Origin: Octopus vulgaris
Taxonomy: Eukaryota
Direction: 5' to 3'
Assembly (NCBI GenBank): GCA_951406725.2
Contig: OX597837.1
Span: forward strand, 4,712,001-4,776,000
DNA length: 64,000 nt
In this document: one piece after another, positions 8,963-26,547 of the stretch
How the letters are laid out: each line of letters begins with the position of its first letter
Numbering within the stretch: the stretch's first letter is position 1
Translations under genes and position numbers: made by a program
Notes under the pieces: model-generated
What the model was told of the DNA's origin: nothing
What the model saw: only the letters and a program-made list of their open reading frames with translations
The model's database searches: none

Positions 8963-11673
8963 CTCTTGGCACAAGGCCCAAATTTTGAGGGAGGGGGCCA
9001 GTCGATCACATCAACCTCAGTACGAAACTGGTATTTAACTTATCGAGAGCGAAAGGATGAAAGGCAAAGTCGGGCATGAGTATCAAACAAAAGAACAAAT
9101 ATATTTTTTTCTCACGGGATTGTGTTAGATGTTGTTTGTTCCTTCTCGAGCCATGCCTGGCTCATAAGGGCCGGTTTCCCGGTTTCTTTGGCGTATAGGT
9201 TCATCACATGGACGGGACGCCGGTTCGTCGCAGGTGAGCTGCAAGATGCAGGAGTAAAGAGTGAAAGAAAGTTGTGGCGAAAGAGTCAGCAGAAGTTCGC
9301 CATTATCTTCTGCCGGAACCGCGTGGAGCTTAGGTGTTTCGCTCATAAACACACACATCGCCCGGTCTGAAATTAGAACCCGCGATCCCTCGACCACAAG
9401 TCCGCTGCTCTAAACAACAGGACATGTGTGTTAGATACAGAGAAGTGATGATTCGAGGCTGAAGGAAACAGATTTGATTCCAAGATATGGAAGCATAACA
9501 CAAGAAAGCAATGACCAAGAAAGGCGCATGAATTTGATTTAAAGAAAATTAGAGATCTCAGATTCTGAACTTCATGTTATGGAATAGGAATCAGGGAAAA
9601 TGTTAAATAGTATTGGAAATCAATGACTAATTCTATATATATGTGCCAACATGGATGTATGTATGTAGATTCATATAGAATATATATATATTTGATTTGA
9701 AAAACAATATCCATACATTATCCACACATGTCAAATATGTGTAGGTACGCAGATATACACGTACAAACATATATATGTTTTAGCAAAATACTGTTGCATC
9801 CATACAAATGCATGTGTATATGTGTGCGCGTGTATATATATAGAGAGAGAGGGAAAGAGAGAGAGAGAGAGAGATGGAGGGGTATATTGATAAGATATGC
9901 ACATACAGTTATAAACAACATGGTGTGTATCCCTATATACTTACAGACCGGCACAGAAATAACAATTTTAAAAAGAAATTGTCGTTTAACTACTTACACA
10001 CACACAAACACACACACATATATATATATATATACATCAATATATACATGTATATATATATATATGTATATACATGTGTATGTATATTTATGTGTATATA
10101 TATATATATACTAATATATATATATCAATGTGTATGCATATATGTAGATATATATCTATATCTATATGTGTGTGTGTGTTCGTGTGCGTGTGTGTGTGTT
10201 CGTGTGCGTGTGTGTGTGTGTGTGTGTGTGTGTGTGTGCATGAATATATGTATTTTACTTGCATATGTATACAAATTCAAAAACACTATCCTACTTACAA
10301 AGATCTACACACACATATAAGACCTTTATAGCTAAAATGTTATTTTGACATATTCCTGCATCTGTACATGAAAAAAAAATGCCATAACCAAATATAATTC
10401 AAGGTATGCGTATCTATAGATCTGCGAGTGCTTGCATAAATGATACATGCCTAAATTAAATGTGAAGGATTTATTAGTATCTGTATACTTATATACGAGA
10501 GAGCGCATGGTCTAGTGGTTAGCGAGGTGCATTCAATATCGAGTGATCAACGTTCAATTCCTGCACTGGATGGTGTATTGTATTCTTGAACAAAAGACTT
10601 CATTCCACCTTCTTCTACTATTGTTTCAACACCTGATTTGTGGAACACGTGTGCTTATTCGGGCAACGTCGAATTTTAGGAAGGAATTGAGCTAATGTAC
10701 ACCACAAATATTTCATTACCATACACAAAACATTTCTGTAGCTTGATCAGTAACAAATTGCGGACCTACTTTTCTCGGACTGCGTGAGGGTAGTGTCATA
10801 TATGTATTTATGTATTTTACATATATTTATGCATGTTTATATATTTATATGTGTGCAACTATTTGTATGCGTGTATATATATATATATATATATATATAT
10901 ATATATATATATATATATATGTATGTACATATATATATACACACGCATACGAGGGTATAGTAGAAAACACGTGTTCAAGATGCCACGCTGTGGGACTGAA
11001 CCCGGAACAATGTGAGTTCAAGCAACTATTTACCACAACTACTCTTGAGCCTATATACATACATATGTGTATATACATACATACATACATATTTTCTAGA
11101 TGGTGTAATTTAATTGTTCATTTTGAATTGAACCCGGAACAATGTGGTTCGTAAGCAACTATTTACCACACAACTACTCTTGAGCCTATATACATACATA
11201 TGTGTATATACATACATACATACATACATATTTTTAGATGGTGTAATTTAATTATTCATATAAAAGGTGTTTTTGTTCTAATATATATATATATATATAT
11301 ATATATATATATATATATACATTTGATATTTAAATATGTGTGTATACATATATATAATATTTAAACATTTACGTATGTATGTATGTATGTATATATATGT
11401 ATATATATATATATTTTTAATATGCTAGACCACTGGTTTTAATTGATAAATATTGATTTCTACCCTTAATTAATTTTATATAAATAAATATGTTCTCTAA
11501 CCGATAAATTGACTGCTGATAATTATTAGCTGCAGGTTAGTTTCTTCGGGTCTCAACGCGCCATAGTAAAGGCATTTGAAAGATACATTCGAATGTAATA
11601 GGTTGAACTCCACGCACGCGATACTCAGGTATCGTTTTTGCATCTAGTTCAGCAAATTGCATTTATAACGGGC

Positions 11674-11735
11674 CATCCTGACGAAGGCTACAGGTATCTT
11701 TGCGGATAATAATAGCCGAGACTGATCAGTACATG
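11674..11735 (+). ncRNA. Degenerate type I hammerhead (GAAA changed to GAGA)
   Basis: CATC CTGACGA A GGCTA..TAGCC GAGA CTGATCAG T A CATG; perfect palindromic stem III ACTGATCAGT; inside a roughly 470-nt island (11423-11890) between (TA)n tracts. Confidence 0.6.
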
Positions 11736-25126: not shown

Positions 25127-25791
25127 TTATCAGCCGAGTCTATCGTTAATATCGTCACGCCCCCTTCCTTCAAACGGGAAGGAAGAGCTATTTTTATCAT
25201 ACTTGTGGCTATGGCGAAAGAATGTATCTGGTGGACGCGCCTGAAAGGATTAGAGACAAACACTTTCCTCTCTGGTCAATCTCTCATCAACTTCTTCAAA
25301 TATCACTTGAAGAGGAAAGTGGGAATAGAGAGACAAGTTTTGTCTAATGAATGTTTTAAAAAACGATGGGTGAATGTAACAAGGATGGCACGTATGAATG
25401 ACGAAGCCACCTTGACTATGATTTTATGAACCGTAAAAATTAATGCAGAGAGTTGCTTATTTCTAAAAAAAAAATATATAACATGCGACTTCATTGACCG
25501 AGGTTACCGTGGTCTTTTCTGTAGGCTTTTCTTTCAAGGGTAAACCTCACCTGCTCCCCCCTTTACACTGTATATCGACATGTCTGTGATAACGATCCTT
25601 ATTGATCGATTTTTTCTTTTTCCTTTAATTTTTATCCCCTCTTTTTGTTTTTGCTTTCCTCTTTCTTTCCTTTTACGATCCCTTTTGATCGAAAACCAAA
25701 ACCCCTTTTTTATCCCCAAAAAGAAAAGCTCTACCTTGTAATTTGTCCCGTCTCTGTGCAGCCCTGTGTGGCTAATAAAGAAACATATCTA
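25127..25791 (+). mobile_element. Tx1/L1-type LINE 3' end (ORF2 C-terminus plus 3' UTR)
   Basis: Frame reads IFIILVAMAKECIWWTRLK...KVGIERQVLSNECFKKRW, matching the AK..IW..R and F..RW motifs; stop at 25427-29; pyrimidine-rich UTR ending AATAAAGAAACATATCT. Confidence 0.65.
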
Positions 25792-26547
25792 CACTATTTC
25801 AACTGTTACGGCCTCACTGTCTCTGGTAGTAGACAACCGTTGCTAAATTTTCTGCTTCCAAATGTATAAAGTGCCGTATTCTTACAAAAAAAACCTCGTA
25901 TGTAGTGTCAGGGTCACATTTCTCTAAAAAACTATGACTGAGTGTGTTAAAAGTTTTATAGCCTCTCAATTAAATTAATGATCGTCGCCAGATTGAACCA
26001 CTCCCGTAGGAACCTATTAGCGTTGTTTCGTATTCTCTTCAATCTTGTTAATGACATTCACCGGATTTTAATAGGTTATAACCCACTCCCATAGCCATTC
26101 ATCCATACATGCATATATACATATATATACATACATTACATATATATATGCATATTCATGGATATACGTATATATATATATATATATATATATATAAAAT
26201 TATATGTGGTTGCTTCGGAGCTATTTTTAGCACTAGAGTTATCCACATAGTGGATAACTCTCTAATAATTTATGTATAAATTTGTATTTCCTCCGTAGTT
26301 TTTTGTGCTAAGCCACTTGGTGTTAAATTGACGGTATTATTAAATTAATATCGATTTTTCACCCTCATTTATAATTTTATAAATTTAACTACGCGGCAGT
26401 CAATATTTTATTTGATGCGGCATACGTTTCCAATGGAGTCTAGGCATGCTTTTGGCGCGGAATTTGAGACATAACTAAAAATGTAATTGGTTGGACCGCT
26501 CGTGTTTTTGACGCCCGAATCGATCTAATTAATTGCATTTCTGACAA

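Follow-up and report, generated by a model that had tools for sequence, protein, structure and literature searches.

A predicted RNA fold conserved at the 3' end of octopus hammerhead retrozymes as a candidate signal for a Penelope-type reverse transcriptase

Introduction

The reverse transcriptases (RTs) of Penelope-like elements (PLEs) form the sister group of telomerase. The non-coding hammerhead retrozymes of animals, an already known class, have been proposed to be copied from circles by such RTs (Cervera & de la Pena, 2020, PMC7229834; Li, Clavereau & Pollet, 2026, bioRxiv 10.64898/2026.07.22.740005). Inverted arms, a tail on one side and (TA)n targets are described as signatures of Penelope-like insertion (Craig et al., 2021, PMC8557442). 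In vitro, the RT of one PLE initiates at two internal positions near a stem-loop, and the sequence between them is the tail; at AT-rich DNA this RT cleaves and extends the two target strands, and it is predicted to form a dimer (Frangieh et al., 2024, PMC11167929). In the available text of these accounts, two questions stand open: how the retrozymes of animals come to be copied into genomes, and which feature of the RNA causes a Penelope RT to initiate internally at two sites. Here we describe the retrozymes in a 64,000-nucleotide (nt) stretch of the Octopus vulgaris genome (assembly GCA_951406725.2, contig OX597837.1, C24 in our numbering, positions 4,712,001 to 4,776,000 of the forward strand), hereafter the window, along with a hairpin-bearing motif that they share.

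A sequence-only reading of the window had seen in this motif a cis-element upstream of ribozymes that might serve in RT recognition, priming or transcription. We find that it is common to about 13,000 copies of small non-coding mobile repeats with hammerhead ribozyme sequences, and that it is a 3'-end element of retrozyme insertions, not mainly an upstream one. The motif is real, and it probably has a function. Our preferred reading, to which we assign a probability of roughly 0.66, is that it forms the 3' half of a conserved, predicted fold of ~170 nt at the retrozyme 3' end, and that this fold would bind a Penelope-type RT and set its two start sites.

A superfamily of dispersed hammerhead repeats

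The three motif instances listed earlier are present at 11423-11466, 21017-21067 (one base longer than listed) and 26306-26365. Tandem copies at 21508 and 26799 bring the number in the window to five, with a scan of both strands yielding nothing further. Measured from the motif end, the hammerhead core follows after 212, 179 and 189 nt, which agrees with the spacing of ~180-210 nt given before. In the genome, which is 2.8 Gb in size and rich in microsatellites, the pattern CTARRCCRCT(N)GGT-N15-45-ACCCT has 12,977 exact matches as against 2 for its reversed control, numbers that put the pattern far beyond chance.

Every copy in the window belongs to a dispersed family spread over many contigs, and we call these families A, B and C. 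The unit measures 491 bp in B (98-100% identity among copies), 493 bp in C (96-100%) and ~505 bp in A (90-96%), identities that point to recent amplification of all three. Further families in the sample from contig C1 have periods of 473, 508 and 534 bp, among others, with the tandem periods spanning 473-534 bp. The nine unit sequences compared sort into three groups (A-G-J-K, B-F and C-E-H), which align at 68-75% internally and to each other in short blocks only; hence the description of the repeats as otherwise divergent was correct. By blastn the units of the window share the motif alone, the best match between A and C (E 0.002) being the motif itself. The earlier notion of a cis-element that defines a hammerhead superfamily holds as to conservation and unit size (~470-535 nt), but not as to definition by a position upstream of the ribozyme. 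The units have a GC content of 0.32-0.37 (63-68% AT), under the 45% limit for retrozymes, and no open reading frame (ORF) of at least 150 amino acids (aa) was traced to any of them.

Each tandem unit carries a predicted type I hammerhead. The family B version preserves CTGATGA/GAAAC/GTC in 103/103, the family C version has a CCGAAGA core (U4C) in 82 of 85 anchor matches, and family A mostly shows CTGATGA/GAAAC, with its window copy at 11.4 kb being damaged. A whole-window Rfam scan was swamped by microsatellite miRNA matches. The focused scan used instead returned sub-threshold Hammerhead_1 matches only (for family B, 22 bits against a gathering cut-off of 34, E 0.014) and no family for the fold described below. 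An extremely young Hydra-type PLE with a 717-aa frame (L421-L440; at least 150 copies with identical endonuclease) likewise has CCGAAGA or CCGATGA cores.

Retrozyme insertions end at two fixed sites

We sampled 70 loci from the first 100 motif matches on C1 (30 in order and 40 chosen for variety), which together hold 87 distinct motif places. In 57 of these a microsatellite begins 2-21 nt (median 11) after ACCCT. Only one such terminal place has a hammerhead downstream, at 284 nt. A hammerhead 150-250 nt downstream, which had been proposed as a test of the motif, is lacking at 56 of the 57. Among the 29 non-terminal places 23 have one, at 168-216 nt; the remaining place of the 87 lay at a locus edge. 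The spacing between motif and ribozyme appears only because the units are tandem, the hammerhead in question being that of the next unit.

The ends were mapped in 80 loci, representing 56 independent insertions, picked as the best matches to the window copies. Each family has two end positions, ~90-106 nt apart: site 1 lies 30-45 nt before the motif and site 2 lies 10-20 nt after it. When an insertion has an inverted arm, one arm ends at each site in 28 of 32 cases (12 from B, 7 from C and 9 from A), and the exceptions are four family A loci with a short inverted piece that ends at neither. A stricter anchor script returned 22 cases with one arm per site and three others, all three of which are anchor artefacts. 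These insertions display the inverted, 5'-truncated arm and the one-end tail of PLEs as well as their microsatellite or AT-rich targets, with ends in (TA)n. The Hydra-type PLE copies of this genome follow the same one-end-per-arm pattern.

Units from the same insertion differ by 0.94 substitutions in B, 3.3 in C and 4.0 in A, as against 7.6, 9.5 and 34 for units from different insertions, while the opposite arms of family B insertions differ by 0-1 substitutions. The near-identity of the units of one insertion fits the copying of one RNA template per insertion; later homogenisation could have had the same effect. Contigs from four runs that we took to be RNA cover family B, and contigs of this kind carry no record of strand, starts or circles.

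A predicted, covarying fold encompasses the motif

Two strands located 75-130 nt upstream are complementary to YRCUARRCCRCU, the 5' half of the motif, after which comes the GGU..ACC hairpin (P5). In the 8-bp helix P3, YUAGYRYN, 75-105 nt upstream, pairs with NRYRCUAR; in the 5-6-bp helix P1, GYGGY, 100-130 nt upstream, pairs with RCCRC. Hence, the hairpin of the sequence-only reading belongs to a conserved element, as had been supposed, but is just the last stem of a larger fold.

We counted pairs in P1, P3 and the base of P5, leaving out P4, in a MAFFT alignment of 27 out of 72 representatives picked by eye, with fold-back, truncated, deleted and unrelated rows dropped. Across these 27 variants 89.5% of the cells are paired, as against 25-46% in slid controls, and there are 45 double-change cells versus 13.7 after shuffling (0/500). 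RNAalifold recovers P3 from the same alignment unprompted, and this helix is 95.4% paired with five double-change pairs. Genome-wide, the central pair of P1 is C-G at 2,930 of 6,167 places, U.G at 69, C.A at 75 and U-A at the rest (~3,090, by subtraction), counts that track family size; one-sided variants amount to ~2% of places and are mostly single copies. When folded singly, B and C give the same P1/P4/P5 frame (z ~-4.9), and P3 forms fully in B and in part in C; P4 is backed by these per-sequence folds, not by the alignment.

Site 1 falls within the fold, in an AU-rich loop closed by P3 and ~10 nt after hairpin P4, while site 2 falls just past it, ~10-20 nt after P5. Because the insertions end at two fixed points in or just after the fold, it is likely to be the grip and copying handle of the RT. 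It is conceivable instead that the fold has been kept for the life cycle of the RNA, be it circle stability, ligase recruitment or control of whether the hammerhead is free or blocked, with the RT simply priming on the two AU-rich single strands that lie nearest, through their pairing with nicked (TA)n. Both sites do lie in AU-rich single strands resembling the target, the fold is found in none of the autonomous PLEs checked (see below), and retrozyme circular RNAs are described as highly self-paired and abundant (PMC7229834). Yet units with 63-68% AT offer many AU tracts, of which just two are used, and these stand at a constant distance from P4 and P5 across families that are otherwise unalignable; moreover, conservation extends to the unpaired CU that follows P5 and to the exact junction of the helices. 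We regard this alternative as unlikely.

An earlier idea of two look-alike "bulged hairpin" modules was rejected, as the two CUAG strings pair together in P3 and the supposed bulge pairs upstream in P1. The modules had been likened to the hepatitis B virus epsilon signal.

A candidate promoter separate from the motif

The E2F-like TTTGGCGCG reported between motif and ribozyme is found at 21143 and 26451, and again at 26944. Across the nine units, TTTGGCGC is present in eight, 62-91 nt after the motif; five of these have it forward and three, among them family A, reversed. All nine go on to a hexamer, TTTGAR or CTTGAA, 83-108 nt after the motif. An 8-mer of this kind turns up somewhere in 7-18% of shuffled units, and the real units are related to each other. 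The spacer between E2F-like site and hexamer is 4 nt in family C and 11-16 nt in B, E, F and J. In mammals an E2F site in either orientation, with a hexamer resembling the CHR (cell cycle genes homology region) 4 nt further on, constitutes a cell-cycle promoter element (PMC5716687). The retention of the E2F-like site in both orientations suggests that it acts as a double-stranded DNA site, and, judged by its sequence, the E2F/CHR-like block is a candidate promoter distinct from the motif.

This bears on whether the motif itself might be a DNA-level promoter element, of the RNA polymerase II or small nuclear RNA (snRNA) type, for the ribozyme 180-210 nt downstream. Such a role would sit well with the strong conservation of its primary sequence and with the fixed hammerhead spacing in continuing units (168-216 nt). 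It would not account for the compensatory pairing with upstream strands or for a motif that always has one orientation and stands at the insertion end; further, the motif is absent upstream of 22 U1/U2 loci, and the separate block, reversed in three of nine units, makes the better promoter. We judge a promoter role of the motif very improbable. Among the roles originally suggested for it, RT recognition or priming is the best reading, and that of promoter fits the E2F/CHR-like block better.

As an snRNA proximal sequence element (PSE) the motif was rejected: 0 of the 22 U1/U2 loci carry it with the hairpin, and some U1 flanks contain just a 12-mer with two mismatches. These loci (L399-L420) share an ATCAGT-type element ~58 nt upstream of the gene, which is a candidate for the PSE of this animal.

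Search for an autonomous partner and points against the proposed RT-binding fold

A look for the motif at the ends of autonomous PLEs, as had been advised, found it in none of the ~15 families examined, nor did this partial survey of families reveal sequence homology of the retrozymes to an autonomous PLE terminal repeat. Searches with the GIY-YIG domain led to Neptune-like families with short tails, including one with an intact 781-aa ORF, and those checked are without the motif at their ends. A second clade, with RWK, DKT and CxCx5C signatures and no CCHH, matches the description of Hydra elements by motif comparison (PMC8557442). Several of its families combine canonical hammerheads and long open frames (717, 842, 899, 960-994 and 981-1091 aa) with two ends that lie ~65-175 nt apart; those that we label X, Y, Z, W and V, along with the 717-aa family, have no motif at their ends. 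Pfam gave no match for the 1091-aa ORF. When the model R1 was run over 45 sources, no match to a PLE end was better than E 0.6, and the strong matches were retrozyme copies. In a dead Hydra-type family, R (L441-L460), a motif-like string does lie ~46 nt before the long end in 15 of 20 loci; however, this look-alike scores 0-17 bits where true members reach 24-35, and 8.7 bits are scored by family Y as well, for which reason we treat it as a lead only.

The absence of the motif from the autonomous families checked weighs against an RT-binding fold, and so do several properties of the retrozyme data. The covariation counts are not independent of each other, and the C-G form of the P1 double change probably arose once, in the B/F/I lineage. 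The invariance of GGU/ACC is built in, because the exact-pattern search fixed the outer letters of the motif. Further, the distance between the two sites, ~90-106 nt, exceeds the published PLE tail length of 30-40 bp; the tails of Hydra-type PLEs in this genome are likewise long (~65-175 nt).

Family R is a possible ancestral donor of the motif, and one of its copies (L449) carries TGCTAGACCACT exactly. With the resembling string described above, this would suit an account in which the motif is an inherited relic of an ancestral Hydra-type tail, shared by descent and no longer needed. Against this, in young active retrozyme families (97-100% identity) double changes preserve the pairing where the surrounding sequence is unalignable between groups, and the one-sided variants of the P1 centre noted above stay rare. 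We consider the relic account improbable.

Two apparent links to PLE coding regions were discarded. A chimera of a Hydra-type RT fragment and a retrozyme (L144) belongs to a set of segmental duplicates on C1 (L340, L358 and L144), and its join came later, because the duplicate L340 keeps a whole Hydra-type element; in L144 and L358 the RT ORF is joined to the retrozyme at a short microhomology adjoining the hammerhead. We took a PLE ORF lying directly behind a motif (L156) to have inserted later into the AT tract.

Among the Neptune-like families (L131-L138, L184-L208, L126) we observed tails of ~35-45 nt that share an ATATAT-N-CTCGT-like start. The 3' region of the 781-aa family has repeated CCAAT and TGACGTC boxes, and that of L126 has TTAGGCGCG with CCAAT.

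Proposed mechanism and its significance

Given the observed ends, pairing and arm rule, we infer binding, cleavage, circles and a dimer along the following lines. Transcription from a promoter just upstream of the hammerhead, for which the E2F/CHR-like block is a possibility, would produce a multimeric transcript, which the hammerheads would cut to monomers, and these would circularise. A dimeric PLE protein may then bind the fold and nick both strands of a (TA)n target, with each subunit priming one strand at one site, both on the same RNA. An RT rolling round the circle would thereby lay down tandem arms back to back.

It is possible, and we offer this only tentatively, that the retrozymes evolved an RNA of their own, rather than one derived from an active partner, that loads a dimeric Penelope RT with both subunits on one circle. 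One subunit would prime in the helix-closed loop and the other just after the fold, and a captured E2F/DREAM-type promoter would time expression to dividing cells. If true, this would supply the missing cis-signal of animal retrozymes and, for the telomerase-related PLEs, the first RT-recognition RNA to be defined. More generally, the superfamily offers a short (~170-nt), covariation-supported candidate signal together with natural insertions in the thousands, in which both start sites are recorded; the same genome also has several young PLE ORFs, still intact, that can be tested against it. An RNA handle known to fix the boundaries of a template would be of interest to the PLE and telomerase fields, with a possible use in RT-based genome writing.

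Retrozyme copies and neighbouring elements in the window

The family A copy (11411..11889, plus strand; unit ~505 bp) consists of about one unit, 5'-truncated just before the motif and ending at site 1 in (TA)n. Its motif region (11421..11466, plus) supplies the 3' strands of P3 and P1, then the hairpin P5 (GGU...ACC) and CU. There follow an E2F-like site on the minus strand and TTTGAA (11556..11580; one mismatch here, exact in the family A unit), the damaged type I hammerhead (11673..11735, plus; GAGAC and stem I mismatches) and the 5' half of the fold (11814..11889, plus), with the P1 5' strand at 11814-11819, the P3 5' strand at 11843-11850 and P4, ending at site 1.

The family B insertion combines an inverted arm (20500..20665, minus), ending at site 1 in (TA)n, with a forward arm of 1.85 units of 491 bp (20666..21573, plus), ending at site 2 in (TA)n. 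On the plus strand the forward arm contains a type I hammerhead with a long stem II (20749..20851; CTGATGA...GAAAC...GTC) and the full fold (20907..21067), in which P1 is formed by 20907-20912 and 21023-21028, P3 by 20934-20941 and 21015-21022, P4 by 20943-20964 and P5 by 21029-21065, with site 1 at ~20976. Beyond it lie the candidate promoter block of E2F-like TTTGGCGC and CHR-like TTTGAA (21143..21167), a second type I hammerhead (21239..21343) and a second fold copy with its motif (21398..21573), which ends at site 2. A partial family B arm (31938..32142, minus), missed earlier, ends at site 1 in (TA)n.

The family C insertion (26205..27259, plus), of 2.14 units of 493 bp, starts at the P1 5' strand and ends at site 1 in (TA)n. 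Its fold (26205..26365, plus) comprises the 5' strands of P1 (26205-26210) and P3 (26227-26234), P4 (26235-26261), the 3' strands of P3 and P1 (26304-26317) and P5 up to 26365; the second copy was the one folded. Further along the plus strand are TTTGGCGC and TTTGAG across a 4-nt spacer, as in the spacing of E2F and a CHR-like element (CLE) (26451..26468), a type I hammerhead with the CCGAAGA core variant (26548..26623, with a second copy 493 nt further on) and the second motif copy (26797..26858). Some 5' truncations fall exactly at helix starts, namely at the P1 5' strand in this copy (26205) and at P5 elsewhere (L014:1039), hinting that structure stalls the RT.

Other mobile sequences surround these copies. 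Just upstream of the family A copy, a 135-bp duplication (10997-11290) has a piece resembling a short interspersed nuclear element (SINE) joined to a Neptune-like PLE 3' end that matches L141/L229. A degenerate Hydra-type GIY-YIG fragment with ~40% identity to the 1091-aa family occupies 33286-33471 on the minus strand, and an abundant SINE-like repeat stands in tandem, with periods of 184-217 bp, at 16721-17323, 40350-40754 and 47067-47431. A 218-aa frame at 57421-58074 appears to resemble the C-terminal zinc-knuckle and restriction-like endonuclease region of a retrotransposon without long terminal repeats (non-LTR).

Comparison with known systems

The octopus repeats resemble the metazoan non-LTR retrozymes (PMC7229834; bioRxiv 10.64898/2026.07.22.740005) in consisting of tandem units that are non-coding, low in GC and provided with a single type I hammerhead, in occurring as dispersed monomers and multimers, and in their link to PLEs, the proposed mobiliser. 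Their units are larger than the 170-400 nt reported by Cervera & de la Pena (2020). The Xenopus retrozymes display homology to pseudo-long terminal repeats (pLTRs) in 24 of 57 families (Li, Clavereau & Pollet, 2026), whereas none was found here among the ~15 PLE families checked. The available text of these accounts mentions neither a covarying 3' fold across many families nor two fixed ends nor an E2F/CHR-like block. A literature survey based on titles, abstract openings and term counts, with subscription journals and supplements outside it, yielded no cephalopod retrozymes, no covarying cross-family retrozyme fold and no one-site-per-arm rule.

With regard to the candidate promoter, the presence of TTTGGCGC in either orientation followed by TTTGAR, and the 4-nt spacer of family C, parallel the E2F/CLE and cell cycle-dependent element (CDE)/CHR elements (PMC5716687); the 11-16 nt spacer in B, E, F and J differs from these definitions, which derive from mammalian promoters. 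The Hydra-clade PLEs (PMC8557442) share (TA)n targeting and canonical hammerheads with the retrozymes, and the Hydra-type families of this genome also share the long tails and the two-arm rule; they differ from the retrozymes in having an ORF for an RT-endonuclease, and no active family checked has the motif. The likeness extends to the Poseidon element PAc (Craig et al., 2021; Frangieh et al., 2024), which has an inverted 5'-truncated arm, a one-end tail, AT-rich or (TA)n targets and two start sites tied to an RNA stem-loop (PMC11167929). Its tail is 30-40 nt long, as against 90-106 nt in the retrozymes, whose ends, unlike those of PAc, flank a multi-helix covarying domain in an RNA that encodes no protein, and in which the rule of one site per arm could be quantified.

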